Assembly: GCA_965242525.1 (NCBI GenBank)
Contig: OZ251459.1
Location: forward strand, 960,001-1,024,000
Length of the DNA: 64,000 bases
Origin: an uncultured Candidatus Binatia bacterium
GTDB taxonomy: Bacteria; Desulfobacterota; Binatia; UBA9968; JAJDTQ01
Direction: 5' to 3'
Shown here: positions 7,867 through 56,810 of the stretch, piece by piece
Position numbering within the stretch: the stretch's first letter is position 1
Layout: each line of letters starts with the position of its first letter
Position numbers and translations under genes: made by a program
Notes under the pieces: model-generated
Seen by the model: only the letters and a program-made list of their open reading frames with translations
Told to the model about the DNA's origin: nothing
Databases searched by the model: none

Positions 7867-7876
7867 CCACCGACGT

Positions 7877-7920
7877 CCCCGTTCGTCCCGAGCGTAGCGC
7901 AGTGAAGTCGAAGGACGCGC
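7877..7920 (+). repeat. REP-like core copy between convergent genes
   Basis: ccccgttcgtcccgagcgtagcgcagtgaagtcgaaggacgcgc matches the core repeated more than 10 times in this window. Confidence 0.8.
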
Positions 7921-7965
7921 CTTCCCCTCCATCTCGAGGGAAGGGGAGACCGGATGGGGAACCCG

Positions 7966-9138
<1,173 letters not shown>

Positions 9139-9228
9139 TGCCTCTCTCCGGCGGAAGACCCGCGGCCGGCCGTCACCGCATGTTCGGGCTCGGGGGTGTC
9201 CGCCCAATGACTGAGTATTCAGCTTACC

Positions 9229-9257
9229 AATGTAGGTTATTGTCGGGACCGAGTCAA
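9229..9257 (-). promoter_or_regulatory. Putative sigma70 promoter of moeB
   Basis: Minus strand TTGACT-17 bp-TACATT in an AT-richer intergenic stretch. Confidence 0.45.
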
Positions 9258-9286
9258 GGTCACGGCCCGGCCCGGCTTCGATCTCC

Positions 9287-41272: not shown

Positions 41273-41285
41273 CCTGCGTCTTTCA

Positions 41286-41412
41286 GGAGACCCTGAACCA
41301 TCGGGACAGGGGAGGGCATGAGCGCGTCCTTCGACTTCGCTTCGCTACGCTCAGGACGAACGGAGGAATTCGCTTCGCTCGGGACGAACGGGGATAATCG
41401 TCCAGAGTTTGC
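41286..41412. mobile_element. MITE-like element with duplicated REP-like core
   Basis: Ends ggagaccctgaaccat / atcgtccagagtttgc. Confidence 0.75.
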
Positions 41413-41418
41413 TATAAT
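41410..41418 (+). promoter_or_regulatory. Extended -10 promoter (TGnTATAAT), probably giving a leaderless mRNA
   Basis: TGCTATAAT 6 nt before ATG 41425; no SD sequence in between. Confidence 0.65.
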
Positions 41419-41424
41419 GCTTCC

Positions 41425-43233
41425 ATGACTTACCGAAGCCTCGCCGACCTGTTCCTGTCCCAGGCGGACGCAAGGAAGGACCGCATCCTGTACCGTTTCT
41501 GGCGGGACGGGGCGTGGCGCAGCCAGACCTGGGCGGAAGCGGCCGCGGAGGTCGAGAGCATGGCCCTGGGACTGGTCGCCGCGGGAGTAGGGAAGGGCGA
41601 CCGCGTGGCCCTGTACGCCGCCAACCGGGTGGAGTGGTGCCTGCTGGACTGGGCGAACGTCTGCATCGGCGCCCTGACCGTCCCCCTCTATGCTTCCAGC
41701 ACCCCGGCCCAGGTCTCCTACGTGGTGGAGCATTCGGGGGCGTCGGTCCTGGTGGTGGACTCCCGGGCGAACCTGGAGAAGCTCCATGCGTCCGCGGCGG
41801 TCCCGGCCTCGGTGAAGACCACGGTGCTGCTGGACCCGGAGGCCGAGCCCCCGGGCTCCGACCGGGAGCGGCGCGTGTTCTCCCTGGAACGGTTGCAGGA
41901 GATGGGGCGGGACTACGGCCGGGAGCGCCCCGGCGTCTTCCGCGAGTTGGCCGGGGCGTTGACGCCGGAGGACGACCTCACCATCATCTACACCTCGGGC
42001 ACCACCGGGGAGCCCAAGGGCGTCCTCACCACCCACGGACACTACCTGTTCACCATCGCGTCGTCCCTGGCCGCCATGCCCGTCAGCGAGGACGACGTGG
42101 CCTTGCAGTTCCTGCCCCTGGCCCACTCCTTCGGGCGGCTGGAGCATTTCGTCGTGGTGGCGAGGGGCTACGTCTGCGCCTTCGCGCGGTCGGTGGAGAC
42201 CCTGTCCGCGGACCTGCAGGCGGTGCGGCCCACGCTGCTGTTCTCGGTGCCGCGGGTGTACGAGAACGCCCACCGGCGCATCCTCGGGCGGGTCGAGGGC
42301 AGCAGTCCCCTCAAGCAACGGCTCTTCCGATGGGCCCTCTCCGTGGGCAAACGGTACAACGACGCCGCCCGGAAGGGCTCGAGGCTCGGCCGATGGTTGC
42401 GGCTCCGCCACGGACTGGCGGACGCCCTGGTCCTCTCCAAAGTCAGGGCGGGCCTGGGCGGGCGGCTGCGGCTGGCCATATCGGGGGGCGCGCCGCTTTC
42501 GGCCCCCATCGCGGACTTCTTCCAGGCCCTGGGGGTCTGGATCGTGGAGGGCTACGGGCTTACCGAGACCTCGACAGTGACCCACGTGAACCGGCTGGAC
42601 CGCTACCGCATCGGCACGGTGGGGCTGCCCCTGGACGGGGTGGAGTGCCGCATCGCCGACGACGGGGAGATCCTCATCCGGGGCGCCAACGTGATGAAAG
42701 GCTACTTCAGGGAACCGGACGCCACGCGCGAGCAGGTCGGGGAGGACGGCTGGCTCCACACCGGGGACGTGGGCTCCGTCGAGGACGGGGGGTTCCTGCG
42801 CATCACCGACCGGAAGAAGGACCTCATCGTCACCTCCGGCGGCAAGAACGTCGCGCCGCAGATGGTCGAGAACCACCTGCGCCAGGAGCCGCTCATCAGC
42901 CAAGCCATGGTGTGGGGCGACCGGAGCAGCCATCTGGTGGCCCTGCTCACCCTGGACCCCGACGAGGCGCGTCGTTGGGCCGAGAAGGAAGGGGTCCGGT
43001 GGGAGCGGCCCGAGGAAGCGTCGTCCGACCCCCGCCTGGCCGCGCACCTCAGGCAACGGGTCCGCGAACGGAACCGGGAGCTGGCGGCTTTCGAGGCCGT
43101 CCGCGACTTCCGCATACTGCCGGAGGACTTCTCCACCCGCACCGGAGAGTTGACCCCCAGCCTGAAGCTGAAACGCCGGATCGTGAGGGAGCGCTACGGG
43201 GAGCTGCTCGACGAGATGCTGAAGCAGCGCTGA
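41425..43233 (+). CDS. fadD: Long-chain acyl-CoA synthetase (AMP-dependent)
   Basis: IIYTSGTTGEPKG, FLPLAH, EGYGLTET, WLHTGDVG, ITDRKKDLIVTSGGKNVAP, ELTPSLKLKR. Confidence 0.9.
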   Translation: MTYRSLADLFLSQADARKDRILYRFWRDGAWRSQTWAEAAAEVESMALGLVAAGVGKGDRVALYAANRVEWCLLDWANVCIGALTVPLYASSTPAQVSYVVEHSGASVLVVDSRANLEKLHASAAVPASVKTTVLLDPEAEPPGSDRERRVFSLERLQEMGRDYGRERPGVFRELAGALTPEDDLTIIYTSGTTGEPKGVLTTHGHYLFTIASSLAAMPVSEDDVALQFLPLAHSFGRLEHFVVVARGYVCAFARSVETLSADLQAVRPTLLFSVPRVYENAHRRILGRVEGSSPLKQRLFRWALSVGKRYNDAARKGSRLGRWLRLRHGLADALVLSKVRAGLGGRLRLAISGGAPLSAPIADFFQALGVWIVEGYGLTETSTVTHVNRLDRYRIGTVGLPLDGVECRIADDGEILIRGANVMKGYFREPDATREQVGEDGWLHTGDVGSVEDGGFLRITDRKKDLIVTSGGKNVAPQMVENHLRQEPLISQAMVWGDRSSHLVALLTLDPDEARRWAEKEGVRWERPEEASSDPRLAAHLRQRVRERNRELAAFEAVRDFRILPEDFSTRTGELTPSLKLKRRIVRERYGELLDEMLKQR

Positions 43234-43248
43234 ACGCGGAAAGTCCGA

Positions 43249-43324
43249 TGGAGGCGGCGGGCGGATTCGAACCGCCGCATGGAGGTTTTGCAGACCTCTC
43301 CCTTAACCACTTGGGTACGCCGCC
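43249..43324 (-). tRNA. tRNA-Cys(GCA)
   Basis: Minus strand GGCGGCGTACCCAAGTGGTTAAGGGAGAGGTCTGCAAAACCTCCATGCGGCGGTTCGAATCCGCCCGCCGCCTCCA; anticodon arm GAGGT-CTGCAAA-ACCTC. Confidence 0.97.
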
Positions 43325-43411
43325 GGACAGGGGAACGTGTAACACGGGCAGGGGAGGCTTTCAAGCGCCGGGAGGTTGAACAAACCCGGAAAATTGCCTA
43401 TTTTACCTTTC

Positions 43412-43559
43412 GGAAACCCTGAACGATTCAGGTGGCGTGAGCGCGTCCTTCGACTCCGCTTCGCTACGCTCAGGACGAACGGAGGTCTCCGCTTCGCTGG
43501 ACCGGGACGTGCTTTCCCACAGGGAGACGGAGTTCAAGCCGGGATTGTTCAGGGTTTCC
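43412..43559. mobile_element. MITE-like element with REP-like core
   Basis: Near-perfect ends ggaaaccctgaacgat / attgttcagggtttcc; both flanks ctttc (possible target duplication). Confidence 0.85.
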
Positions 43560-43570
43560 CTTTCAGGGCA

Positions 43571-43709
43571 GAAACCTTTGAACAATCGAGACATCCGGGA
43601 TGGATTCCCAATTCCTTCACCCTGACCTCTATCCCCGTTCGTCCTGAGCGTAGCGAAGCGGAGTCGAAGGACGCGCTCATGCCGCCTGTCCCGATTGTTC
43701 AGAGGTTCC
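43571..43709. mobile_element. MITE-like element with REP-like core (adjacent, opposite orientation)
   Basis: Ends gaaacctttgaacaatcg / cgattgttcagaggttcc; flanks ggca/ggta. Confidence 0.8.
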
Positions 43710-43783
43710 GGTAGTCGATTCCGGCCGCAAGGGCGCTCCTTGCGCGGTTGCGGCCGGTGGAACGGGTTGAGGAGCTTTCTTCC

Positions 43784-45163
43784 ATGGCGACGATGATAAC
43801 CAGCGAGTGCATCAATTGCGGCGCTTGCGAACCGGAGTGTCCCAACGAAGCCATCACCCAGAACGATGATATCTACGTCATCGATCCGGTGCTGTGCACG
43901 GAATGCGTCGGTTTCCACGACTATGAAGCGTGCGCCGCGGTCTGTCCGGTGGACTGCTGCGTGACCGACCCCAACAACGTCGAGCCGGAGGAAGCGCTCA
44001 TCGACCGGGCGCGGGTGCTGCACGAGGACGTGGACTTCGGCGACGACTTCGAGTCCCGCTTCCGTACCGGGGAGACCGCTGCCGCGGCGCCCGCCGAGGC
44101 CCCCGCGGCAGCGCCTCCGGACGCGGGCAACGGAGCCGCGGCCCAGGCGCCAATCCCGGCCGCGGCGCCTGCACCCGCAGCCGCGCCGGTCCCGGCCGCG
44201 GCGCCTCCTCCCGCGGCCGCGGTCCCCGCTCCCGCGGAAGAGCCGGAGGAAGAGCCCGAGCCCGCGCCCCGGGCGCCCAAGGTCTTTCCCGACCAGTTGC
44301 CCATGGGGTTCGAGGAGTTGGCGCAGAAGGTCCAGGCCAGCGAATCGCGCTTGGCGCGGCTGTCGCTGTTCCTGCTGCAACCCCTGCTGGGCGCCTTGCC
44401 TGCGGCTTCCCGGGACGCCCTGGCGGAGTTGGCCGGCCGCCCCTACTTCGTGGCGGGGGCCGCGGTCTCCCTCAACATGATCCTCGACATGATCCTCTAT
44501 CCGGTGGCGTTCGTGGCCGCGGGGCTTGCGCTCGAAGGCATGAGCCTCGCCTTCGACAAGGGCGTGAACCTGTACATACTCGCGGGCTTCGTGGCCGCCC
44601 TGGCGGAAGTGCTGTACCGCCTGCGCGAGAGCGTGTTCCGGGCCGTGCCCGCGGAGACCGTCACCCTGGGACCGGCCTTCTACGGCGTCCCGTTGGCGCT
44701 CCTGCTGCAACCCTTCCTGTCCGGCCGGGCAGAGTTGCTGCGCCGGGTCCCGGTGCCGGTGGAGGGTTTCTACGACTCCCGGTTCGTGGAGAAACTGGAG
44801 CGCGAGAGGCGCTACGGCCATGCCTACACGGTGGAGGACCTGGGCAAGGCCTACCACCTGAGGCTGGAGTTCCCCACGCAAGTGCCGCGGCTGGGCATCG
44901 CCATGGCGCCGAGACTGCCCGAGAGGATGCCGGACTACGATTACGACCTGCTGTTGAAGGAAGGCCAACTCATCGTCAAGGGCAAGCTGCCGGACTCCCG
45001 CATCCGGAAGATATCCTCGAGCATCGGCGCCTTCCCGCCCGAGTTCACCACGGTCATCCCGCTCCAGGAGCGGGTCTATGGTTTCTCGCACCACCTGGGC
45101 AGCAAGGTCCTGGACGTGCTCCTGCTCAAGGAGAGCGCGGCGAGGCTGGGGTGGATCACCTAG
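43784..45163 (+). CDS. YfhL-type 2[4Fe-4S] ferredoxin fused to Ala/Pro linker, membrane segment and Hsp20-like C-terminal domain
   Basis: CINCGACEPECP...CTECVGF....CAAVCPVDCC; PAAAP linker; hydrophobic helices; beta-rich C-terminus. GAGGAG RBS before ATG 43784. Confidence 0.8.
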   Translation: MATMITSECINCGACEPECPNEAITQNDDIYVIDPVLCTECVGFHDYEACAAVCPVDCCVTDPNNVEPEEALIDRARVLHEDVDFGDDFESRFRTGETAAAAPAEAPAAAPPDAGNGAAAQAPIPAAAPAPAAAPVPAAAPPPAAAVPAPAEEPEEEPEPAPRAPKVFPDQLPMGFEELAQKVQASESRLARLSLFLLQPLLGALPAASRDALAELAGRPYFVAGAAVSLNMILDMILYPVAFVAAGLALEGMSLAFDKGVNLYILAGFVAALAEVLYRLRESVFRAVPAETVTLGPAFYGVPLALLLQPFLSGRAELLRRVPVPVEGFYDSRFVEKLERERRYGHAYTVEDLGKAYHLRLEFPTQVPRLGIAMAPRLPERMPDYDYDLLLKEGQLIVKGKLPDSRIRKISSSIGAFPPEFTTVIPLQERVYGFSHHLGSKVLDVLLLKESAARLGWIT

Positions 45164-45189
45164 CGGTCCCCAGGCCGCCGGAGCCGCCC

Positions 45190-45678
45190 ATGTCCACACC
45201 GGCCGGCGAGGGTTGGCGCTTTCGGGGCATGACCGTGGCCGACATCGACGAGGTCATGGCCATCGAAAGGGCTTCGTTCGCCAGTCCCTGGAGCCGCCAG
45301 TTCTTCCTGGACGAGTTGTGCGCGGACCGCGCCAACTCCGTGTTGTGCCAGGTCGAAGGCAAGCCCGTGGGCTACGTCATCTACTGGGAGCTGCCCGAGG
45401 AGATGGACATCCACAACGTCGCGGTCCACCCGCAACACCGGCGGCGGGGAGTCGGCCGCGCCATGCTCGGCCACGTCATGGACCAGGGCGCGAGGAAGGG
45501 CCTCCGTCGGATGACCCTCGAGGTCCGAAGGTCCAACGACGCCGCCCAGTCCCTCTACCGTTCCCTGGGATTCCAGGTCTGCGGCCTGCGCAAGGGATAC
45601 TATTCCGACAACGCAGAGGACGCCTGGGTCATGGAGCGACGGCTTCGGGAGCCGCGTCCCGAACTTTTCCGAAGCTGA
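45190..45678 (+). CDS. rimI: Ribosomal protein S18-alanine N-acetyltransferase
   Basis: IERASF.SPWS, IHNVAVHP..RRRGVG, TLEVRRSN..AQSLY, RKGYY...EDA.VM. Confidence 0.92.
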   Translation: MSTPAGEGWRFRGMTVADIDEVMAIERASFASPWSRQFFLDELCADRANSVLCQVEGKPVGYVIYWELPEEMDIHNVAVHPQHRRRGVGRAMLGHVMDQGARKGLRRMTLEVRRSNDAAQSLYRSLGFQVCGLRKGYYSDNAEDAWVMERRLREPRPELFRS

Positions 45679-45680
45679 CC

Positions 45681-45766
45681 CAATACATTGAATCAAAGGA
45701 CTCAATCCTATTGAATCGTTAGGGTTTATTTCCCTTGACGGCTTCCCCCTGCTACTGTATCATAAT
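45681..45766 (+). promoter_or_regulatory. carD promoter region: two upstream repeat boxes plus sigma70 promoter
   Basis: caatacattgaatc (45681) and caatcctattgaatc (45703); TTGACG(45735)-17 bp-TATCAT(45758). Confidence 0.55.
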
Positions 45767-45917
45767 GGGGAGCCGCTGATGGTGAAAGAGAACCCTCGTT
45801 GACATACCCACTTCCAATCCCGGCCTCTCCCGCCCTGACCGCCTTCCTCCGGATCCACCGGTTGGCCGCTTCCCATGGCGTTTCGATACACGGGGTCTGA
45901 TTTTCAAGGAGAACGGA

Positions 45918-46403
45918 ATGTTCAAGGTCGGAGAGAAGGTTGTCTATCCTGCGCATGGAGTCGGCGAGATCGAAGCGGTGCGAATCCAGGTGATATCCGG
46001 GACCGAGAGAAAGTTCTACATGCTGCGCATCCTCGACACCGACATGAAGATCATGGTGCCGGTGGACAACGCCATGGCCGTGGGCCTGAGGAAGATCATC
46101 GACAAGACCACGGTGACGCGCGTGTACCGGATCCTGCGCGAGAAGAAGAAGCCTCCCATGGACCAGCAGACCTGGAACCGCCGGTACCGCGAATACACCG
46201 AGAAGATCAAGACCGGCTCGGTCATCGAGATCGCCGCCGTGCTCAGGGACCTGTTCCTGTTGCGGAACGACAAGGAGCTTTCCTTCGGCGAACGGAAGGT
46301 GCTGGACACGGCAAGGAACCTGCTCGTGAAGGAGCTGTCCATCGCGCGGTCCCACACCGAGGAAAAGATCATGGAGGACCTGAGCCACATCTTTACCCAG
46401 TAG
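45918..46403 (+). CDS. carD: CarD/CdnL family RNA polymerase-binding regulator
   Basis: MFKVGEKVVYPAHGVG, VGLR, TWNRRYRE, LSFGERK. Confidence 0.95.
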   Translation: MFKVGEKVVYPAHGVGEIEAVRIQVISGTERKFYMLRILDTDMKIMVPVDNAMAVGLRKIIDKTTVTRVYRILREKKKPPMDQQTWNRRYREYTEKIKTGSVIEIAAVLRDLFLLRNDKELSFGERKVLDTARNLLVKELSIARSHTEEKIMEDLSHIFTQ

Positions 46404-46426
46404 CGTGTGGTCTCCCGGTCCGTTGG

Positions 46427-46460
46427 AAGAGCCGAGGGAACCCCCTTCGGCTCTTTTTTT
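46427..46460 (+). terminator. Intrinsic terminator after carD
   Basis: aagagccgaggg...cccttcggctc hairpin followed by T7. Confidence 0.75.
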
Positions 46461-46479
46461 GCCGCAAGGAGGGCCCCTG

Positions 46480-47169
46480 GTGAGAGTCAACGCCGTCATC
46501 GTGGCCGCGGGGAGAGGGACCAGGGTCGGAGGCGGTGAGTCCAAGGTGCTCCTGCCGGTGGCCGGACAGCCGCTGCTCCTCCACGCTCTCCACCGATTTC
46601 GGCGCTCCCGGGAGGTCCGCAAGGCCGTGGTGGTGGCGCCCCGCGCAGACCTGGGGCGGTACGAAGACCTGGTACGGACGGCGCCGCTGGAGCCCCTGGA
46701 GACGGTGGTGCGGCCGGGCGGGTCCCGCCGCCAGGACTCCGTCCGGGCAGGCCTCGACGCCCTCGACCCGGACTGCGAGTTCGTCCTGGTCCACGACGGA
46801 GCCAGGCCCTTTCCCGCCCCCGACCTCATCGACCGCTGCGCTAGGGAGTCCTGCCGCAACCGTTCGGTCACCGCCGCGGTGCCGGTGCGGTACACCATCA
46901 AGACCGTGGTTCGCGGACGAGTGGAGCAGACCCTGCCCCGGAGCGAGCTGTGGGAGATCCAGACCCCGCAGGCGTTTCCCGTGGGTCTGCTGCGGGACGC
47001 GTATGCGCGGGCGGCCGCGGAAGGCGTGACCGCCACCGATGACGCCATGCTGGTGGAGCGGCTGGGGGCGCCGGTCCGGGTGGTGGAGGGGAGCGCCACG
47101 AACCTGAAGGTCACCTACCCCGAGGACCTGCTCTTCGCGGAGGTCCTCGCGGCCCGGGGGCTGGCGTGA
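46480..47169 (+). CDS. ispD: 2-C-methyl-D-erythritol 4-phosphate cytidylyltransferase
   Basis: IVAAGRGTR, GGSRRQDSV, VHDGARP, IQTPQAF, TDDA, NLKVT.PEDL; GTG start with AGGAGG. Confidence 0.93.
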   Translation: MRVNAVIVAAGRGTRVGGGESKVLLPVAGQPLLLHALHRFRRSREVRKAVVVAPRADLGRYEDLVRTAPLEPLETVVRPGGSRRQDSVRAGLDALDPDCEFVLVHDGARPFPAPDLIDRCARESCRNRSVTAAVPVRYTIKTVVRGRVEQTLPRSELWEIQTPQAFPVGLLRDAYARAAAEGVTATDDAMLVERLGAPVRVVEGSATNLKVTYPEDLLFAEVLAARGLA

Positions 47170-47185
47170 AGACCCCGCGCGGGTC

Positions 47186-48100
<915 letters not shown>

Positions 48101-48138
48101 GGGGTTGCGGGGCGCGCCGGAGCAGGGCGGGAAGCCCC

Positions 48139-49254
48139 TCAGACTCCGGCGCCGCCCGGGGCCCGTTCCAGCCGGTACGGCAGTACGGACATGCCGGCAT
48201 ACGCCTTGGCCGCGGTTCGAGCGCCCCGTTGGACCACCACCTTGAAGTAGCTGATGCCCTGGCGGACCACGTAGATCGCTCCTTCTCCGAGCAGCCGTTC
48301 GACGCCCGGCCAGCGCCGCAGCCCGTCGGCTTTCCCGGGAACGCACCAGCCCTGCTCCGTGACCCGGTCTATGAAGGGGTTCCACCCCATGGGGTCGGCG
48401 TCGAACCATCTCACGGGGCGGTACAGCTCCAGGCCGAGCCGCGGCCCGATCCCCTGCGCGGTGACTTCCAGGCCGACGGCGACGTAGGCGGTCAGGTCCT
48501 CCATGGCGGAGAGCACGGCCGCCGCCGCGTCCGTCGACCCGGGCCACTCCAAGCGTTCCAGCAGGGGGGGGACTTCCTCCTGCGCGGCGCCCCAGACGAG
48601 GATGCGGAACGCCTTGGGGGAGCGCCCCGGGAGGGCTCCCGCCTGGAACACGAAAGCCCTTTCCGGCAGGGCCGCGACGATGCGGTCCACCGTTGGCAGC
48701 ATCTCCCGGTGGCCGCTCCAGCCTGCGGTCAGGGCCAGCGCCTCGAGCAGGGCGGCAGGGTCCCGATGCTCGGTAAAGCCCTCCCGGGACCCGGGGGCGG
48801 AGGCCCGGGGCGGGAAGAAGATGCCCGGGGGCGGCGCCGGCCGGTGCGGCGCGAGCCCCGCCAAGTCGTACTCCAGCATCATCGCGCGCACTCCTCGGGC
48901 CAGGTACGAGTCCGTATCCGCGGCCTGTTGCTCGAGTCCGGCCGCGAGAGCGGCCGCCGGCGACCCGGGTTCGGCGCGCTTTCCCTCGCTGACGTAGTGC
49001 CGCGCCAAGTCCGATCCCGGTACCGCCATCACCACGAGGTCGGCGTCCGCGCTCGGCTCCGCGAGATGGAACTCGAAGCCGAAGTGGGTGTCGGCAACGG
49101 AACGGGGCAGCGGCTCCGCCCCCCGCATGACTCGCTCCCAGCCCCCGGCGTCGAGCAGCGCGGGCGGAAAAAGGGAACGGCATCCCCGGAGGACCGTGGC
49201 AAAGGAGCCGCGCGCGGCTCCTGCCGATGGGTCGTCTCCCGTGCCCACTTCCAT
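48139..49254 (-). CDS. Uncharacterised RiPP-associated enzyme, candidate ABBA-fold peptide prenyltransferase
   Basis: 371 aa directly downstream of an NHLP precursor; alternating helix/strand motifs HFGFEFHL..ADADL, MLEYDL, PPGIFF, FQAG, GPRLGLELY, ISYFKVV..AKAY. Function is inferred. Confidence 0.55.
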   Translation of the reverse strand: MEVGTGDDPSAGAARGSFATVLRGCRSLFPPALLDAGGWERVMRGAEPLPRSVADTHFGFEFHLAEPSADADLVVMAVPGSDLARHYVSEGKRAEPGSPAAALAAGLEQQAADTDSYLARGVRAMMLEYDLAGLAPHRPAPPPGIFFPPRASAPGSREGFTEHRDPAALLEALALTAGWSGHREMLPTVDRIVAALPERAFVFQAGALPGRSPKAFRILVWGAAQEEVPPLLERLEWPGSTDAAAAVLSAMEDLTAYVAVGLEVTAQGIGPRLGLELYRPVRWFDADPMGWNPFIDRVTEQGWCVPGKADGLRRWPGVERLLGEGAIYVVRQGISYFKVVVQRGARTAAKAYAGMSVLPYRLERAPGGAGV

Positions 49255-49318
49255 GCCTCGCGCCCCGACCGGCGGTCTTGCCGCAGGACGGCAGACCCTG
49301 CCCCGCGTCAGCGGAACC

Positions 49319-49594
49319 CTACCGCCACCCCACCTCGCCCCAATCGATGCCTCCGGCCACATGCACCAGGTCGGCTTCCCCGAGATTGGCGGAGGGCGGA
49401 AGGACCAGGTGGCTGGTGTCCGCGGTTTCCTCGTGGACCTCGATGTTGAACCCGGAGGGCACGGTCACGCCGGTTTCCGCCTTGATCGCGGCCTTGGGGT
49501 CCGCCATCAATTGGCTGCGGAACTCGCTGTCCACGGTCGACTTTTCGATCAGGTGCTCGCGCAGCTCACTGATGGTCATCGTTTTCTCGTCCAT
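49319..49594 (-). CDS. NHLP (nitrile hydratase-like leader) RiPP precursor; core IDWGEVGWR after a double-glycine site
   Basis: LIEKSTVDSEFRSQLMADPKAAI...P.GFNIEVHEET.DT.HLVLPP...L.EADL..VAGG; AAGGAG RBS 6 nt before ATG 49594; 91 aa. Confidence 0.92.
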   Translation of the reverse strand: MDEKTMTISELREHLIEKSTVDSEFRSQLMADPKAAIKAETGVTVPSGFNIEVHEETADTSHLVLPPSANLGEADLVHVAGGIDWGEVGWR

Positions 49595-49680
49595 GTCCCT
49601 CTCCTTCGGCAGCCTGCACGCGGCCGCGCAAGCGAAATTCGGACGCGCTGCGCTTCGGGTGCGCAGCACGCCGTTCATGG

Positions 49681-49824
49681 AGAGTACGATACGGCCGACC
49701 CGATGTCAAGGTTTCGCACTCACGGAAATGCCTTATCCGGTATTTCCGTGGTCAGTGCGGCGGCGGGTTCCGGCGGCGCCTCGCAACCCTCCGCCTTGAC
49801 ACCGGTGGTGGGCAAATCAATAAT
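49681..49824. promoter_or_regulatory. Divergent sigma70 promoters with a central palindrome
   Basis: Minus: TTGACA(49709-49704)-17-TACTCT; plus: TTGACA(49796)-17-AATAAT; palindrome CACGGAAATGCC-N6-GGTATTTCCGTG at 49721-49750. Confidence 0.6.
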
Positions 49825-49852
49825 GGGGGCAGTACAGGGTGAAGGAGAGCGC

Positions 49853-50293
49853 ATGGCGGAGGAAACAGACACGCAGAAGGGGTTCAAGGTCCACGACAAA
49901 CGCCGGTTCACCGACGAAGGCGAGGCCCGGGAGCAGCAGCCCGCGGGGGAGCCGGCCCCCTCGGAAGAGCAGCAGCCCGCGGAGCCCGGCGCGGAGACGC
50001 GCGCCGTTCCCGTCGGCGATCCCGGGGACCGCCGGGACGAGCTGCCGTCCATCGACTTCTCCACGTTCATCATCAGCTTGAGCACCCAGGCCCTCATGCA
50101 CCTGGGGGAGATGAACGACCCGGTCACGGGCAAGGTGGAGAAGGACGTGGCGGTGGCCAAGCAGACCATCGACATCATCGGCATGTTGAGCGAGAAGAGC
50201 AGGGGCAACCTGGACGAGGCCGAGGAACAGCTCGTGAAGGAAGTGCTGTACAACCTCAGGATGAGGTACGTGGAGGCCGTTCGCACCCCATGA
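49853..50293 (+). CDS. DUF1844 domain protein
   Basis: FKVHDKRRF N-terminus; IDFSTFIISL.TQALMHLG..DPVTG...AKQTID.I.ML.EK.RGNL...E...L...LY.LRM.YV. Confidence 0.85.
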   Translation: MAEETDTQKGFKVHDKRRFTDEGEAREQQPAGEPAPSEEQQPAEPGAETRAVPVGDPGDRRDELPSIDFSTFIISLSTQALMHLGEMNDPVTGKVEKDVAVAKQTIDIIGMLSEKSRGNLDEAEEQLVKEVLYNLRMRYVEAVRTP

Positions 50294-51711
50294 CGCGCGT
50301 GCCGCCGCCACGGACGCCCGGGCGCCGGCGGACGCTCCTGTCCGCCGGCGCGGCCGCGGTCCTGCTGCTCCTGGGGACGCCCCCTGCGGCCGCGGGCCGG
50401 GGCATGGACCTACCCGACTTCGTGGCCCTGTCGAAGCAGGTGCGTCCGCTGGTGGTGCACATCTCTTCCACCCCTTCCACGGAAACGGCGCCAGGTCCGG
50501 ACCCCTTTCGGGAAGGGGATCCTTTCGGCGATTTCTGGCGGCGCTTCTTCGGCGAGGGGTTTCCGCGCCATCCGGGAAGCGGGCAGTCCCGCAGCGTCGG
50601 TTCGGGGTTCATCGTGGACGCCAACGGCTACATCCTCACCAACGACCACGTGGTGGAGGAGGGGCGCGAGCTCACGGTCAAGCTCTCGGACGGGGCCGAG
50701 CATCGGGCCAGGGTGGCCGGCAGGGATCCCCAGACCGACATCGCCCTGGTCAAGATCGACGTGGACCGCAAGCTGCCGGTGGCCACCCTGGGCGACTCCG
50801 CGGCCCTGGAAGTGGGGGAGTGGGTGCTGGCCGTCGGCAACCCCTTCGGCCTGGAGCACACGGTGACCGCGGGCATCGTCAGCGCCAAGGGCCGCCGCAT
50901 CGGCGCAGGCCCCTACGACAACTTCATCCAGACCGACGCCTCCATCAACCCCGGAAACTCGGGCGGTCCGCTGGTCAACCTCGAGGGTCAGGTGGTGGGG
51001 GTCAACACCGCGATCTTCAGCCGGGGCGGGGGCAACGTCGGCATCGGCTTCGCCATCCCCATCAACCTGGTGAAGGGACTCGTGTCGCAACTCAAGGACG
51101 AGGGCAGGGTGACCCGGGGATGGCTGGGGGTGGTGATCCAGGACGTGGACGACGAGACGGCCAAAGCCCTGGACCTGGGCGCGTCCGGGGGAGTCCTGGT
51201 GGCCAACGTGACCCGGGGAAGCCCCGCGGAAGCCGCGGGGGTCCGGGTGGGGGACGTCATCGTGGCGTTCGACGGCGCCGCGGTCCGGAAGTCCGGCGAG
51301 CTCCCGATGGTGGTGGCCCGGACCCCGGTGGGGAAGGCCGTCCGCGTGGAGATGGTGCGGGACGGGCAGCCGCTTTCCGTCACGGTGCGGGTCGGGGAGC
51401 TGCGCGGGGACGGGGCCCCGGCGGGGGACGAGCACGGTCTCGGCCTGACCCTCCGGGAGACCCCCCGACGGCCCGGCGGACGTCCGGGAGCGCAGGAAGG
51501 CGTGGTGGTCACGGGGGTGACTCCGGACGGCCCCGCGGACCGTGCGGGCATCCGCGCCGGAGACGTGATCCTGGAAATCGACCGTGAACGGGTCCGCGGG
51601 CTGCAGGACTTCCGGCAGGCGGCCCGGAAACTGGAGAAAGGCAGCGGCGTGCTCTTCCTGGTGCGGCGCGAGGACACGACCATCTTCCTCGCGCTGCGCC
51701 TTCCGCGTTAG
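50290..51711 (+). CDS. htrA: HtrA/DegP-family serine protease with two PDZ domains
   Basis: GSGFI, LTNDHVV, TDIAL, FIQTDASINPGNSGGPL, two PDZ regions. Confidence 0.93.
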   Translation: MTRVPPPRTPGRRRTLLSAGAAAVLLLLGTPPAAAGRGMDLPDFVALSKQVRPLVVHISSTPSTETAPGPDPFREGDPFGDFWRRFFGEGFPRHPGSGQSRSVGSGFIVDANGYILTNDHVVEEGRELTVKLSDGAEHRARVAGRDPQTDIALVKIDVDRKLPVATLGDSAALEVGEWVLAVGNPFGLEHTVTAGIVSAKGRRIGAGPYDNFIQTDASINPGNSGGPLVNLEGQVVGVNTAIFSRGGGNVGIGFAIPINLVKGLVSQLKDEGRVTRGWLGVVIQDVDDETAKALDLGASGGVLVANVTRGSPAEAAGVRVGDVIVAFDGAAVRKSGELPMVVARTPVGKAVRVEMVRDGQPLSVTVRVGELRGDGAPAGDEHGLGLTLRETPRRPGGRPGAQEGVVVTGVTPDGPADRAGIRAGDVILEIDRERVRGLQDFRQAARKLEKGSGVLFLVRREDTTIFLALRLPR

Positions 51712-51734
51712 CCGGGGTCTGCCGGGACCGAGCC

Positions 51735-53996
51735 ATGGGAGCCACGTTCAAGCGCCTCTTCATGCGACTGCTCAAGGTCTGCGCAACCCTGTGCCTGCTG
51801 GCGGTCCTGGCGGCCGCGGGATGGACGGGCTGGTACGTGTGGCAAGCCAGCGGCGTGGTGAAGGCCAAGTTCGAGGGGCGCAAGTGGGAGTTCCCCTCGA
51901 AGATCTACGCCGACAGCATGATCGTCTATCCGGGGCTGAAGGTTCCGGCGGACCGACTGCGGGAGAAGCTGCGCCGTCTGGGCTATCGACCGTCCCGGAA
52001 CCGGCCCGCGGCGAAAGGGGAGTACCGCATCCGCGCCAAGGCATCGGTGGTGGAGGTCTTCCTGCACGACTTCCGTTATCCCCTGCGGGACTTCCGGGGC
52101 TTCCCCGTGCGCATCTCCCTCCGGTCGGGGACCATCCGGCGCATACAGCGGCTCGACGACGGCGAGGTCCTTCCGTCCCTGGAGTTGGAGCCCGAGGTGG
52201 TCACGGGTTTCTACGACCGGGTGCGGGAACAGCGGCGGGTCGTGCGGCTGGAAGAGGTGCCGCCCATGGTGAAGAAGACGGTGCTGGCGGTGGAGGACGA
52301 GCGGTTCTACTACCATCGCGGCGTCGACCCGGTGGCGGTGATGCGGGCCTTCGTGGCCAACCTGTTGCGGGGAGGAGTGGTGCAGGGGGGCAGCACCCTG
52401 ACCCAGCAGCTCATGAAGAACTTCTTCCTGGAGAGCGAGCGCACCCTCGAGCGCAAGGTCAAGGAAGCGCTCATGGCCATGGTCACCGAATGGATGTACT
52501 CCAAGGAAGAGATCTTCGAGAACTACCTCAACGAGATCTACCTGGGCCAGAACGGCTCCCAGGGGATCTTCGGCATCTGGGAAGGCGCGCGCTTCTACTT
52601 CGTGAAGGAGCCCGAGCAACTGACGGTGGGCGAGGTCGCCATGCTGGCCGGGCTGATCCGCGCGCCGAACCGCTACTCCCCCTACCGGAACCTGGAGCGG
52701 GCCGTCCGGCGGCGCAACGTGGTGCTGGCCAAGCTGGTGAGGGACGGCCTAGTCACGCGGCCCGCGTACGAACGCGCGAGGCGGGAAGTCTTCGAGAAGC
52801 GGGAGCCGGTACGGGCCAGGAACCATGCCCCTTACTTCACCGACTACGTGAAGAAGGAGCTGGCCGAGCATTACAGCCACGACGCGTTGACCGCGGAAGG
52901 GCTGCGCATCTTCACGAGCCTCGACCTGGAGTTGCAACGGTCCGCGGCGCGGACCCTGTCCCGGGGCCTCGCCAAGCTGGAGAAGGACCACCGGCACCTG
53001 CGGCGCAGGTCCAGGACCGACGACCTGGAGGGCGCGCTGGTGGTCATCCAGCCGCAGACGGGCGAGATCAAGGCCATGGTCGGCGGACGGGACTACGGCA
53101 AGTCCCAGTTCAACCGCGTGGTCCAGGCCAGGAGGCAACCCGGCTCCGTGTTCAAGCCCTTCGTCTATCTGGCCGCCCTGACCCACGGCTCGTCCGAGAG
53201 CCGCGAGCCCTACCACAGCACCACCTACGTGGAGGACTCGCCGTTCACCTGGAGCTTCGGCCGCCAGGTGTGGGCGCCGGAGAACTACAACGACCGCTAT
53301 TTCGGCCAGGTCACCCTGCGCGAGGCCATGGAAAGGTCCCTGAACGCCGCCACCGCGCGCATCGCCCAGGACGTGGGCATCGGGAAGGTGCGCGAGATGG
53401 CTTATCGAATGGGCATCCAGAGCCGCCTTCCGCTGCTGCCTTCCCTGTCCCTGGGCGCGGTGGAAGTGACGCCCCTCGAAATGGCGGGGGCCTTCTCCGC
53501 CCTGGCCAACAACGGCGTCCGCACCCATCTCCTGTCCATCAAGAACGTGGTGGACCGCAACGGGACCGTGCTGGAGAAGGGGAACATCCGGGTGCAGCGC
53601 GTCATCTCCCCCGAAGTCGCCTTCGACATGAACAACATGTTGCGGGGCGTCATCGACCGGGGCACCGCGCGGAGCGTGCGCGAGGGGGGGTTCACCCGCC
53701 CCGCGGCAGGCAAGACGGGCACCACCAACGACACCCGGGACGCATGGTTCGCGGGTTATACCCCGGACCTCCTGGCCCTGGTATGGGTGGGCTTCGACCG
53801 TCAGTCGGAGTTGGGACTCCCCGGGTCCCGGGCGGCCCTGCCCATCTGGACGGACTTCATGAAACAGGCCACCGGCAGGCTGCCGGTCACCGACTTCGTC
53901 CCGCCGCCGGGGGTGTCGCCCCCCGAACGCGAAGCGCGCCGGCGCGCCGGGAGTCAACGGAGGGGACCTCTGAACCATTCCCCCCGTTCGTCCTGA
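51735..53996 (+). CDS. mrcB: Class A penicillin-binding protein (PBP1B-like)
   Basis: TM anchor, UB2H-like segment, EDERFYYHRG, GGSTLTQQL, RKVKEA, PGSVFKP, SLN, KTGT; last codons and stop lie inside a MITE. Confidence 0.88.
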   Translation: MGATFKRLFMRLLKVCATLCLLAVLAAAGWTGWYVWQASGVVKAKFEGRKWEFPSKIYADSMIVYPGLKVPADRLREKLRRLGYRPSRNRPAAKGEYRIRAKASVVEVFLHDFRYPLRDFRGFPVRISLRSGTIRRIQRLDDGEVLPSLELEPEVVTGFYDRVREQRRVVRLEEVPPMVKKTVLAVEDERFYYHRGVDPVAVMRAFVANLLRGGVVQGGSTLTQQLMKNFFLESERTLERKVKEALMAMVTEWMYSKEEIFENYLNEIYLGQNGSQGIFGIWEGARFYFVKEPEQLTVGEVAMLAGLIRAPNRYSPYRNLERAVRRRNVVLAKLVRDGLVTRPAYERARREVFEKREPVRARNHAPYFTDYVKKELAEHYSHDALTAEGLRIFTSLDLELQRSAARTLSRGLAKLEKDHRHLRRRSRTDDLEGALVVIQPQTGEIKAMVGGRDYGKSQFNRVVQARRQPGSVFKPFVYLAALTHGSSESREPYHSTTYVEDSPFTWSFGRQVWAPENYNDRYFGQVTLREAMERSLNAATARIAQDVGIGKVREMAYRMGIQSRLPLLPSLSLGAVEVTPLEMAGAFSALANNGVRTHLLSIKNVVDRNGTVLEKGNIRVQRVISPEVAFDMNNMLRGVIDRGTARSVREGGFTRPAAGKTGTTNDTRDAWFAGYTPDLLALVWVGFDRQSELGLPGSRAALPIWTDFMKQATGRLPVTDFVPPPGVSPPEREARRRAGSQRRGPLNHSPRSS

Positions 53997-54067
53997 GCGT
54001 AGCGAAGTCGAAGGACGCGCTTTCCCATGGGAGAGCGCGCCTCGAGCCAGAATCGTTCCGAGGTTCC
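53963..54067. mobile_element. MITE-like element with REP-like core and GGAG target-site duplication
   Basis: Ends gggacctctgaaccatt / aatcgttccgaggttcc; GGAG on both flanks. Confidence 0.8.
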
Positions 54068-54078
54068 GGAGGTGGGTC

Positions 54079-55068
54079 ATGATCGTGTTGGGGATCGAGA
54101 CGTCGTGCGACGATACCGCGGCCGCGGTGGTGGAGGACGGCAGGTCCGTGCGGGCCAACCTGGTGTCGTCCCAGGACGCGGTGCACGCGCCCTACGGCGG
54201 CATCGTGCCCGAGATGGCTTCGCGCCAGCACGTCCGCGCCATCCAGCCCATGGTGGACCGGGCGCTGGACCGGGCCGGCGTCGCCGCCGGGGACCTGGAC
54301 GGGTTGGCGGTCACCTACGGCCCCGGGTTGACCGGGTCGCTGCTGGTGGGCCTCTCGTTCGTGAAGGCGTGGTCCTTCCGTTCGGGCATCCCCTACGCAG
54401 GGGTCAACCACCTGGAAGCCCACGTGCTGTCCATCTTCCTGGAGCAGGAGGTGGAGTTCCCCTACGTGGCCCTGGTGGCCTCGGGAGGACACACTCTGCT
54501 CTACGTGGTCCGGTCCTTCGGCGAGTACCAGCACCTGGGCGGCACCCTCGACGACGCCGCGGGGGAAGCCTACGACAAGGTGGCCAAGATGATGGGGCTG
54601 GGTTTCCCGGGCGGGCGCGTCATCGACGAACTGGCCAGGAAAGGGGACCCGGGCGCGGTGGCCTTTCCCCGGGCCCGTCTGCGCAACCCCTACGACTTCA
54701 GCTTCAGCGGGGTGAAGACCTCAGTCTGGCGCTACCTCGGCCGGGACGACCGGTGGCGGGACCGGATGGCCGACGTTGCGGCGAGCTTCCAGGAGGCGGT
54801 GGTGGACATGTTGATGGCGCCCACGCTGCGGGCCGCGGCCGACCTGGGCATCGAACGCATCGTCCTGGGGGGAGGGGTCTCCGCCAACAGCCGTCTGCGC
54901 GGGAAGCTGGGCGAGAAGGCCGCGGAGGCGGGCGCGGAGCTCTACTACCCGTCTCTGGCCTTCTGCACCGACAACGGCGCCATGGTGGCGCTGGTGGGAA
55001 GCCACCGGCTGGAGCAGGGCCGCGGCAGCGGTCCGCGGCTGAACGCCGACCCCGGCCTGATCCTCTGA
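54079..55068 (+). CDS. tsaD: tRNA N6-adenosine threonylcarbamoyltransferase
   Basis: LGIETSCDDT, GGIVPEMASRQH, NHLEAH, ASGGHT, DDAAGEAYDK, FSFSG.KT, CTDNGAM. Confidence 0.96.
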   Translation: MIVLGIETSCDDTAAAVVEDGRSVRANLVSSQDAVHAPYGGIVPEMASRQHVRAIQPMVDRALDRAGVAAGDLDGLAVTYGPGLTGSLLVGLSFVKAWSFRSGIPYAGVNHLEAHVLSIFLEQEVEFPYVALVASGGHTLLYVVRSFGEYQHLGGTLDDAAGEAYDKVAKMMGLGFPGGRVIDELARKGDPGAVAFPRARLRNPYDFSFSGVKTSVWRYLGRDDRWRDRMADVAASFQEAVVDMLMAPTLRAAADLGIERIVLGGGVSANSRLRGKLGEKAAEAGAELYYPSLAFCTDNGAMVALVGSHRLEQGRGSGPRLNADPGLIL

Positions 55069-55103
55069 CCGGCGCACCCGCGGGCGGGCGCGGCCGCTTG
55101 CCA

Positions 55104-55955
55104 ATGGCGACCCTTCATCAGGAGGCGAGGACGGCCTGGCGGGTATTGGGCCTCAGGCCGAGCAGGGCCCGGGGCCAGAACTTCCTCGTCCACCAGCGCG
55201 TCATCGACTCCATCCTCCGGCTCCTGGAGCTCGGCGAGGACGACCGTATCCTGGAAGTGGGACCGGGACTGGGCTTCGTCACCCGTTGCCTGGTGGGGGA
55301 GGACCGGGAGGTCTGGGGAATCGAGGTGGACCCCCTGCTGGCCAAGTGGCTGCGCGACGATCCCCTCGGGTCGCACAGGGGGTTCCACCTGGTGCACGAG
55401 GACGTGCTGGACACGGACTTCGACCGCCTCCTGCCCGGAGGCAGGGTCAAGGTGGTGGGGAACCTTCCCTACAGCGTCGCCGGCCCGGTGCTGCTGCGCC
55501 TCTTCGAGGAGGGGCGGCACTTCTCCCGGCTCGTGGTGATGCTCCAGAAGGAGGTGGCCCAAAGGCTCGCGGCCGAGCCCGGCGCCCGCTCCTACGGCGC
55601 CCTGTCCGTGTGGACCCGGCTGTACGGTCGGGTGACCCGAAAGGCGCCGGTGGCGCCGGAAGCCTTCACCCCGCGTCCCAAGGTCCACTCGACGCTGTTG
55701 CGGATGGATCTGTACGAGCAGCCGCTGGTCCCCGCAGAAGAGATCCCGCGGCTGCGCGCGGTGGTGCGGGCGGGGTTCGCCCAAAGGCGCAAGATGCTGG
55801 GCAACGCTCTGGCGCCGCTCTTCGACCGTGAGGCCGAGGCCATATTCGGGAACGCCGGCATCGATCCCCGACGGCGGGCCGAGACCCTGGACCTGCACGA
55901 GTTCGGCCGGCTGGCCAGAGCCTTCGGGGACGCCGCCCGCGAGCCCGGCCGCTAA
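55104..55955 (+). CDS. rsmA: 16S rRNA m6(2)A dimethyltransferase
   Basis: GQNFL, EVGPGLG, GNLPYS, MLQKEVAQR, YGALSV, F.QRRKML, RRAETL. Confidence 0.95.
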   Translation: MATLHQEARTAWRVLGLRPSRARGQNFLVHQRVIDSILRLLELGEDDRILEVGPGLGFVTRCLVGEDREVWGIEVDPLLAKWLRDDPLGSHRGFHLVHEDVLDTDFDRLLPGGRVKVVGNLPYSVAGPVLLRLFEEGRHFSRLVVMLQKEVAQRLAAEPGARSYGALSVWTRLYGRVTRKAPVAPEAFTPRPKVHSTLLRMDLYEQPLVPAEEIPRLRAVVRAGFAQRRKMLGNALAPLFDREAEAIFGNAGIDPRRRAETLDLHEFGRLARAFGDAAREPGR

Positions 55956-55988
55956 GACCCGAAACCGGCGCCCGAAAGGACCCTCCCC

Positions 55989-56810
55989 ATGCCCGAACTG
56001 CCCGAGGTCGAGACCGTATGCCGCACGCTCCATCGGCGGCTCCGCGGTGTGAAGATCCTCCGGGTCCGCGTGGTGGAAAGCCGCTTGCGGCAACCGGTGG
56101 CCGCGGACTTCGCCGCCCGGCTCCGGGGCAGGACCGTGGCATCGGTGACCCGGCGCGGGAAGTACGTCCTGGCCGCGCTGGACCGCGGCTGGACCTGGGT
56201 CTCGCACCTGGGCATGTCCGGCAAGCTCACCCTCCGGGCGCCCGGGGCGCCCCTGGACAGGCACGACCACATCGTGTTCCGGCTGGCGGACGGCGGGGAG
56301 CTGCGCTACCACGACCCGCGCCGGTTCGGGTTGTGCGTGGTCCTGCCGGACTCGGAGGTGGAGGCTTGGCCGCCCCTGGCCCGGCTCGGGCCGGACCCGC
56401 TGGACCCGCGGTTCACCGGGGACTACCTCTATCCGTTCCTGCACCGCTCCCGCCGGAACGTCCGGGACCTGCTGCTGGACCAGCAGGTGGTCGCGGGCCT
56501 CGGCAACATCTACGTGAACGAGGCGCTGTTCCGCATCGGGGTCCGTCCCACCCGCCGGGGCTTGCGGATCTCCAGGGCGCTCACCGGGGAGCTGGTGGGC
56601 GAGGTCACCGCGCTGCTGCGCGAGGCCATCCGATGGCGCGGCTCTTCGGTGTCGGACTACCGCGACGGCAACGACCACCGGGGGGGCTTCCAACTGCGCC
56701 TGCGGGTGTATGGCCGGGAGGGGGAGCCCTGCCGTAGCTGCGGCGCGCTCGTCAAGCGCATGGGGCTGGGGAACCGCGGGGCCTTCTACTGTCCCCGGTG
56801 CCAGGCGTAG
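55989..56810 (+). CDS. mutM: Formamidopyrimidine-DNA glycosylase
   Basis: MPELPEVET, RRGKY, HLGMSG, DPRRFG, GLGNIY, zinc finger CRSC...YCPRCQ. Confidence 0.96.
   Translation: MPELPEVETVCRTLHRRLRGVKILRVRVVESRLRQPVAADFAARLRGRTVASVTRRGKYVLAALDRGWTWVSHLGMSGKLTLRAPGAPLDRHDHIVFRLADGGELRYHDPRRFGLCVVLPDSEVEAWPPLARLGPDPLDPRFTGDYLYPFLHRSRRNVRDLLLDQQVVAGLGNIYVNEALFRIGVRPTRRGLRISRALTGELVGEVTALLREAIRWRGSSVSDYRDGNDHRGGFQLRLRVYGREGEPCRSCGALVKRMGLGNRGAFYCPRCQA

Follow-up and report, generated by a model that had tools for sequence, protein, structure and literature searches.

Leader-dependent prenylation of tryptophan in peptides that are ribosomally made and post-translationally modified (RiPPs), with precursors of the nitrile-hydratase-like leader peptide (NHLP) or Nif11 type, is already in print in reports from 2023 to 2025, and the predicted system presented here is its simplest form when set against the accounts given there. 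It consists of two genes, for a 91-aa NHLP-type precursor and a 371-aa enzyme, in a 64,000-nucleotide stretch of DNA from an uncultured Candidatus Binatia bacterium (assembly GCA_965242525.1, contig OZ251459.1, positions 960,001 to 1,024,000). This whole stretch is called the window below, and positions without a contig name are counted from its first letter. Prenylation of peptides alters their membrane affinity and bioactivity, and site-selective enzymes for linear peptides are wanted as tools. The window offers the barest context of the enzyme family, namely one precursor, one enzyme and a nine-residue core without any other modifiable residue, and activity, donor length and the rules of Trp site choice should therefore be easy to test on it.

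The substrate of NctPC, an enzyme said to come from Hubrich et al. (Chem 2024), is reportedly a proteusin precursor, that is, one of the NHLP type. NctPC has been described as a prenyltransferase of the ABBA-barrel type that has little similarity to the cyanobactin enzymes and carries a fused terpene cyclase, and it places geranylgeranyl onto Trp (PMC13290415). According to the same account, ComQ, PalQ and ChrPC are helical Trp prenyltransferases resembling trans-isoprenyl diphosphate synthases (trans-IDS). PalQ acts on PalX of Paenibacillus alvei, an NHLP precursor whose C-terminal Trp is conserved (PMC10853753). In Moorena producens, MppC is a soluble and strictly leader-dependent enzyme of ABBA type, which geranylates Trp82 at indole C5 with geranyl diphosphate (GPP); its precursor MppE has two core Trp, of which one is modified, behind a long and structured leader of Nif11 type, which is akin to NHLP (PMC12715784). 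ABBA-type peptide prenyltransferases are also known from the cyanobactin F-family (PagF, KgpF and LimF), and some of these are Trp-specific (PMC13290415, PMC12715784).

The window pair shares features with each of these systems as they are described. With NctPC it has in common the predicted ABBA-barrel type and the proposed attachment of an isoprenoid to Trp of a ribosomal peptide, and one member of the window family, P0273, is likewise fused to cyclase-like domains. However, NctPC combines C20 transfer with subsequent cyclisation by its fused cyclase, whereas the window enzyme stands alone and no cyclase is encoded in the cassette; the comparison of the P domain of NctPC with the window enzyme is one of descriptions only. 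MppC and MppE resemble the pair in the ABBA type, the long structured leader and the core with two Trp. In contrast to the window core, which has no Cys, Ser or Thr and no other maturase beside it, the core preferred by MppC is one cyclised through lanthionine by LanM, and MppC has been assigned to the cyanobactin prenyltransferase family (PMC12715784) whereas the window enzyme matches no Pfam family. The PalQ and PalX system is also a small cassette with an NHLP-type precursor, a single prenyltransferase and a C-terminal Trp, but PalQ has an all-helical isoprenoid-synthase fold and a histidine kinase alongside, whereas the window has a predicted beta-barrel and no kinase. The cyanobactin F-family differs, in the accounts cited above, by acting without a leader on excised and mostly macrocyclic cores; it is absent among the fold matches listed for the window enzyme, although kinship is still possible. 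A partner maturase, either LanM as for MppC or a fused cyclase as in NctPC, was not found in the two-gene cassette. By analogy, the pair would thus work like the NctPC, MppC and PalQ systems, and it would be distinct in its stand-alone barrel, its linear nine-residue core and the lack of a second maturase. An earlier reading made from the letters of the window and a list of their open reading frames (ORFs), called the sequence-only reading here, had proposed a new RiPP type with one unknown enzyme. The novelty does not hold, as NctPC (2024), MppC (2025) and PalQ (2023) are precedents within what their reports describe, and the enzyme is not without kin, since its predicted fold is that of the ABBA aromatic prenyltransferases. 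Its suggestion that the product could be a lipopeptide was a good guess.

The precursor and the predicted fold of its enzyme

The precursor gene lies at 49319..49594 on the minus strand, with its ATG at 49594-49592 and its TAG at 49321-49319. Its 91-aa translation matches TIGR03793, the model of the NHLP leader, at 66.8 bits (E 1.1e-18), above the cut-off of 50.9, and residues 9-82 cover profile positions 3-77. In Pfam, only sub-threshold matches to NHase_alpha and related leader families were obtained. The leader comprises residues 1-82 and ends in VHVAGG, and the core IDWGEVGWR, encoded at 49322-49348, follows directly; G82 is kept in at least 90% of the precursors in an alignment of 24 sequences (A3). 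The core contains no Cys, Ser or Thr. The sequence read as a ribosome-binding site, AAGGAGAGGG at 49597..49606 (minus strand), includes GGAG at 49604-49601, 6 nt 5' of the ATG. The leader type, the double-Gly site with its nonapeptide core and the gene's own ribosome-binding site had all been pointed out by the sequence-only reading, and each was confirmed. The ratio of nonsynonymous to synonymous substitution rates (dN/dS) of the precursor against its orthologs is 0.43-0.64.

The gene of the enzyme (P0002; 48139..49254, minus strand) has the same orientation and begins with ATG at 49254, leaving 64 bp after the precursor stop, exactly as first read. The GTG at 49248 may be the true start, because GAGG stands 7 nt upstream of it at a better spacing and the N-terminus of the homolog P0004 starts at the matching residue. 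The view of the pair as a self-contained unit of one precursor and one enzyme was upheld, and no gene for a radical SAM enzyme, LanM, YcaO or a transporter occurs in the cassette. In a word-indexed search, 182 relatives of the enzyme were found at E≤0.001 among 8000 scored candidates, and none of the 120 relatives listed carried a precomputed Pfam domain. An exhaustive search returned 1453 cluster representatives at E≤0.001, of which 501 reached E≤1e-10 and 88 reached E≤1e-30, so that the family is large, although databases hold no model of it. From the best 150 listed in this search, 101 near-full-length representatives were aligned (alignment A1). Pfam found nothing in six longer family members of 403-498 aa. 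Counting the window genome, the family is present in 18 of 28 genomes of the genus, and in a sample drawn evenly from the phylum it is rare (2/401).

An AlphaFold2 model based on alignment A1 has a mean predicted local distance difference test (pLDDT) of 92.8 and a predicted template-modelling score (pTM) of 0.90, and in it pairs of strands alternate with pairs of helices. As modelled, the enzyme is a complete ABBA (PT-barrel) prenyltransferase barrel. A search of the PDB with Foldseek gave 88 matches at E≤0.001, and the best 49 of the 88 are all aromatic prenyltransferases; at the top are the Trp or indole enzymes PriB (E 2.4e-6, TM-scores 0.55/0.57), IptA and CymD. With VIA-align, 131 of 1000 chains reached Z≥8, and the 50 matches listed are all prenyltransferases. 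The best of these is MpnD (Z 17.6, 297 residues aligned, root-mean-square deviation 4.4), and 6-DMATS, FgaPT2, CymD and PriB follow at Z 16.4-16.5. Thus, the whole barrel superposes on these enzymes of DMATS type (Z 16.4-17.6 over 288-304 residues), but the identity is only 9-13% and no match to the Pfam family Trp_DMAT exists. According to their PDB titles, the ligands in the solved DMATS-type structures are free Trp or small indoles and not leader-bearing peptides. The nearest named ESM-Atlas clusters, which serve as a lead only, are Trp_DMAT (0.90), PF19156 (0.89) and PTase_Orf2 (0.89). The all-helical trans-IDS-like type of ComQ and PalQ does not fit the model, which is a beta-barrel, and a Pfam match of this type to the enzyme was not found either. 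On the basis of this fold and the genomic context, the enzyme is a predicted ABBA-fold peptide tryptophan prenyltransferase.

Conservation in alignment A1 concentrates on the strands of the model, which make up 94 of the 371 residues. Of 38 positions with conservation of 80% or more, 22 are on strands, among them E61, D72, E128, R217, K338, K350 and Y352, and these strand positions often show i/i+2 spacing. Three residues (E61, K338 and Y352) do not vary at all, and D72, E128, D130, R211, R217 and K350, mostly on strands, are conserved at 90% or more. In ABBA enzymes, the diphosphate is held by basic and Tyr residues along the inside of the barrel, and an acidic residue serves the acceptor. 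Judged by this conservation, these strand residues may form the diphosphate site.

Linkage to Trp-rich precursors, and the one candidate exporter of the genome

Eleven external loci were obtained by scanning genome contigs with the window enzyme, and NHLP precursors are present at all 11. The sequence-only reading had advised such a survey of homolog neighbourhoods, and its outcome bears out the pairing of enzyme and precursor. Of the 18 complete enzyme genes at 13 loci, 11 follow a complete precursor on the same strand that ends 50-192 bp upstream, and the remaining seven have a precursor within about 2 kb; tandem precursor-enzyme arrays occur at several loci. The loci of the closest orthologs, L011 (85% identity) and L012 (78%), are bare two-gene units in unrelated surroundings, and no JmjC, cyclase-like or transporter gene was found within 6 kb of either. 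Homologs of a JmjC protein are present at 8/11 external loci, and homologs of a 358-aa protein at 3/11. The phylum labels of the metagenome-assembled genome records behind L011-L021 disagree among themselves, and at least one genome behind them shares match coordinates with a member of the window's own genus. Therefore, no claim of cross-phylum transfer is made.

Some copies are damaged. The enzyme gene at L014:9139-10163 is broken over two frames, the precursor at L016:5090-5956 misses the Gly-Gly region and part of the core, and the enzyme genes at L017:339-1526 and L018:6031-7179 contain short inserts that interrupt the profile match. At the locus of a distant homolog in another genome (L041, G143:C10:87000-103000), within 7478-10237 on the minus strand, an ORF of about 170 aa and of unrecognised type precedes the homolog on the same strand. 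A 406-aa ORF further upstream has a GGGPAG motif, from which a flavin adenine dinucleotide (FAD) enzyme is a guess. The opposite side of the homolog has an ORF of 1172 aa that is kinase-like.

Tryptophan is the common feature of the cores. The statistics are based on 28 precursors with 25 distinct cores, which are related in sequence, so that the counts are not independent. Trp is present in all 25 cores and accounts for 48 of their 519 residues (9.2%), against 1.46% in the long ORFs of the genome, and in the leaders just 2 of 2122 residues are Trp. In 13/25 cores the chain ends with Trp, and in 17/25 the last Trp lies at most two residues from the end. Over all 48 Trp, the next residue is Asp in 13, the chain ends directly after another 13, and Asp comes before 13. 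At least two Trp occur in 19/25 cores, typically one near each end, and a single Trp in 6/25. In alignment A3, W90 (core position 8) is the only invariant core column (24/24 precursors), in agreement with the role given to Trp when the core was first read.

A tree of the 18 complete enzymes divides them into two clades, each with 100/100 support, and both clades occur together in several genomes. In clade I, the window enzyme groups tightly with those of L011 and L012, and Trp is followed by Asp or Gly in the adjacent cores, which are IDWGEVGWR, FSWDNVGW and the FWDD cores. Clade II includes a paralog from the window genome itself, and the motif in the cores beside this clade is Asp-Trp, which is mostly C-terminal. 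The clades may differ in their preference for the Trp site, as these few and related sequences could suggest.

This paralog, 39% identical to the window enzyme, is encoded at C1:1620865-1621893 in a second and larger cluster (L025, G000:C1:1611890-1624985), 0.6 Mb from the window cassette. The cluster holds genes for HlyD, an ATP-binding cassette (ABC) transporter with a C39 peptidase domain, a second ABC protein and four precursors of NHLP type with Trp in their cores. It further encodes a JmjC oxygenase, a cyclase-like protein of 358 aa and an ISL3 transposase; the JmjC and cyclase-like genes occur only in this distant paralog cluster. In the whole genome there is exactly one C39 peptidase domain (C1:1614536-1614922), and it is inside this peptidase-containing ABC transporter (PCAT; C1:1614482-1616695). 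A genome search for such a transporter and for further precursors had been suggested in advance, along with processing and export in trans. It yielded the one PCAT, which could serve the cassette from 0.6 Mb away, and eight NHLP-profile matches above the cut-off, with two more below it. Three of the precursors have no nearby enzyme gene, at C1:1559566-1559787(+), C1:2928404-2928628(-) and C1:721491-721718(-), with the cores TSLWEAIKQTARDW, SVTMVDDGSGVWKFFFPSTW and TDFWEYMRIFYPEYWRHDPEGRF, and they are presumably modified in trans. The two sub-threshold matches (42.3 and 33.1 bits) fall in one 338-aa frame at C1:790054-790452(+), which may be a true nitrile-hydratase-type protein and not a precursor.

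The cyclase-like protein also connects the family with isoprenoid chemistry. P0273, a 1022-aa metagenomic protein, matches the family profile with E 1.8e-56, and its barrel domain at about 345-684 (BLASTP) is preceded by a cyclase-like domain and followed by another domain that weakly matches squalene-hopene cyclase. The flanking domains resemble the 358-aa protein of L025 (28% identity, E 2e-6). P0273 is the only fused form found, and it came from the profile search, as the single-protein search gave none. For the 358-aa protein itself (L025:891-1967), three of four homologs match SQHop_cyclase_C with a best E of 0.0076, below the cut-off, and its ESM-Atlas neighbours are squalene-hopene-cyclase-like, which is a weak lead. 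A PDB sequence search with this protein returned nothing, and its AlphaFold2 model from a four-sequence alignment (pLDDT 42) is unusable for placing the fold.

Proposed route to a prenylated nonapeptide and its alternatives

The pair is probably a minimal RiPP cassette for leader-dependent Trp prenylation, followed by cleavage and export in trans through the single C39-ABC transporter. The leader of the 91-aa precursor would be bound by the adjacent ABBA-fold enzyme, which would move an isoprenoid, of whatever chain length, from a prenyl diphosphate donor to the indole of a core Trp. The likeliest site would be the family-invariant W90, possibly together with W85 (core position 3). The modified precursor would then be cut after Gly-Gly and exported by the genome's only transporter of this kind, and the product would be the prenylated nonapeptide IDWGEVGWR. 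A role for isoprenoid chemistry is supported beyond the fold itself because P0273 fuses the barrel to cyclase-like domains.

Several results weigh against this reading. The enzyme has no Pfam or NCBIfam match at E≤1, and the prenyltransferase families Trp_DMAT (PF11991), PTase_Orf2 (PF11468) and PF19156 match 0/101 family members at E≤0.1; a search of PDB sequences with the family profile gave a single irrelevant match (E 0.21). Nothing in sequence thus ties the enzyme to prenyltransferases, and the fold is a prediction and not a solved structure. A prenyl-diphosphate synthase gene was not found near the cassette, and the two PF00348 genes of the genome are elsewhere. Position 336 is Tyr in the window enzyme but His in 97% of the family, and the enzyme's dN/dS against orthologs (0.39-0.45) indicates moderate constraint only. 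The distant homolog of G143 (profile E 5.3e-39) is found in a genome with 0 NHLP matches, and therefore the link to NHLP is not universal in the family. A predicted complex of enzyme and precursor scored 0.53 and the best of three controls 0.00, with contact agreement of at least 73% and a partner pLDDT of at least 75 in the runs. In the calibration of this score, 58 of 80 solved complexes passed the mark, as did 2 of 110 mismatched pairs. Passing scores of 0.60 or less were seen for only 7 of the 80 solved complexes, yet for both mismatched pairs that passed. The score falls in the weak band, and the model lends weak support to binding.

It is also conceivable, although quite unlikely, that the barrel enzyme performs other chemistry on Trp, for example by cyclising the core through a link between two Trp or between Trp and a carboxylate. 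The paired Trp of 19/25 cores, typically near both ends, would suit such a link, and Asp, Glu or the free C-terminus follows Trp in 29/48 cases; the cassette has no isoprenoid gene of its own, and the enzyme lacks a sequence match to prenyltransferase families. However, the structural neighbours among the matches listed are all prenyltransferases, and the fusion of the family member P0273 to cyclase-like domains points the same way. The ABBA fold is not known to have any chemistry other than prenyl transfer. Since 6/25 cores have a single Trp, a Trp-Trp link is not the common reaction of the family, and a Trp-Trp cross-linking enzyme was set aside after the fold result and these single-Trp cores. 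Very improbable is the idea that free Trp or a small molecule is what the enzyme prenylates, and that the enzyme's position beside a precursor is meaningless. The nearest solved structures do act on free Trp or small indoles, and the genome of the G143 homolog has no NHLP gene; against this idea stand the adjacency at 11/11 external loci, the tandem repeats and the Trp in every core. Moreover, the pair moves as a unit into unrelated surroundings in the window, L011 and L012, to which the complex prediction (0.53 against 0.00) adds weak support.

A further alternative takes the cassette as a recent silent or decaying copy, with the second cluster doing the work. The insertion is recent, being absent at this site in 11/11 congeners, Tyr replaces the near-invariant His336, dN/dS is about 0.4, and there are broken relatives, namely the enzyme of L014, split over two frames, and the truncated precursor of L016. 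Nevertheless, both frames in the window are intact and the ribosome-binding site is good. The same Tyr336 is found in P0006, an intact ortholog with 85% identity, and the core IDWGEVGWR is identical in L011 despite a dS of 0.20. A promoter-like site is also present upstream, at the position of a housekeeping promoter, and a silent copy is accordingly judged unlikely. Beyond the minimal cassette for leader-dependent prenylation and trans export, the pair could belong to a genus-wide combinatorial lipidation system, in which plug-in cassettes of clades I and II, each specific for its site, serve all eight NHLP precursors in trans. This extension is speculative, with a fairly low chance of being right. 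If it is true, mono- and bis-prenylated linear peptides would share one exporter, as most precursors carry both motifs, and new cassettes would become expressed by landing behind a housekeeping promoter, as at cysK.

Insertion of the cassette between cysK and DUF1844

The cassette is flanked by the gene of a CysK-type pyridoxal phosphate enzyme (PALP; 47186..48100, minus strand; PF00291, E 1.6e-79) on one side and by the genes for DUF1844 (49853-50293, plus strand) and HtrA (50290-51711, plus strand) on the other, and Pfam thus confirmed the placement of the pair between cysK and the DUF1844-htrA genes that had been proposed. DUF1844 was found in 21/21 relatives. The order IspD, CysK, DUF1844, HtrA is kept in 11/11 congeners for which loci were returned, with CysK adjoining DUF1844, and the enzyme and precursor genes lie between the two in 0/11. 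In blastn comparisons, DNA homology to these 11 congeners ends at 48079-48103 and restarts at 49778-49843. The break in homology and the absence in 11 congeners therefore define a two-gene insertion of about 1.6 kb that is particular to the window genome at this site; it extends over approximately 48101..49700, with junctions placed within tens of bases. A clean insertion between conserved housekeeping genes provides a dated example of how a cassette spreads and gains expression within a genus. The region shows no striking departure in GC content. A 14-nt inverted repeat near the cassette ends (48102-48115 and 49776-49789, 13/14 matches) was considered as a mark of the insertion, but it is probably due to chance, given that 1.8 kb of GC-rich DNA contained 84 inverted pairs in all, and its right arm falls within DNA common to the congeners. 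The IspD gene at 46405-47169, two genes away, was likewise tried as an isoprenoid linkage and dropped, because the IspD-CysK arrangement is conserved in the congeners.

Upstream of the precursor, a promoter-like TTGACA (49709-49704), a spacer of 17 nt and TACTCT (49686-49681) are found on the minus strand (49681..49709). The -10 hexamer matches TATAAT at 3/6 positions, and the site is absent from the output of the promoter scan. In the congeners, the native cysK promoter reads TTGACA/T-17-TATCAT or has a similar -10 hexamer. The -35 and spacer of the window match it at 15/18 positions in L035 and L037, a level also attained in 1 and 2 of 200 shuffles, respectively, and the best local alignment puts the window TTGACA on the native -35 in 6/11 congeners. 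Thus, the promoter sequence that was first reported is present, but its description as the precursor's own is doubtful in view of this resemblance. Going by the alignment, the cassette promoter is probably the former cysK promoter, which would drive the precursor, the enzyme and perhaps cysK, and the same comparison suggests that the cassette landed in the 5' untranslated region of cysK. The cysK gene lies 38 nt downstream of the enzyme gene in the same orientation, and no terminator-like site was found between them (48139 to 48100); cysK is possibly co-transcribed with the cassette.

On the other strand, a strong promoter-like TTGACA-17-AATAAT at 49796-49824(+) stands 29 nt before the DUF1844 start. 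This block is kept in 10/11 congener intergenic regions, L039 being the one without it. The gap between cysK and DUF1844 is longer in L031 (about 870 bp, with palindromic repeats of the GGGAGAGGG type) and in L036, and the site may be prone to insertions. The sequencing runs listed as matching include none of RNA; of the DNA runs, two had a share of 0.85 and runs labelled as sponge metagenomes had 0.36-0.49, from which no claim on habitat or expression is made. Further out, a tRNA gene at 43252-43324 on the minus strand is the sole Rfam match within 40000-56000, and a 471-aa ORF at 43748-45163(+) begins with a Cys-rich motif like that of a 4Fe-4S ferredoxin, followed by a long stretch rich in Ala and Pro.

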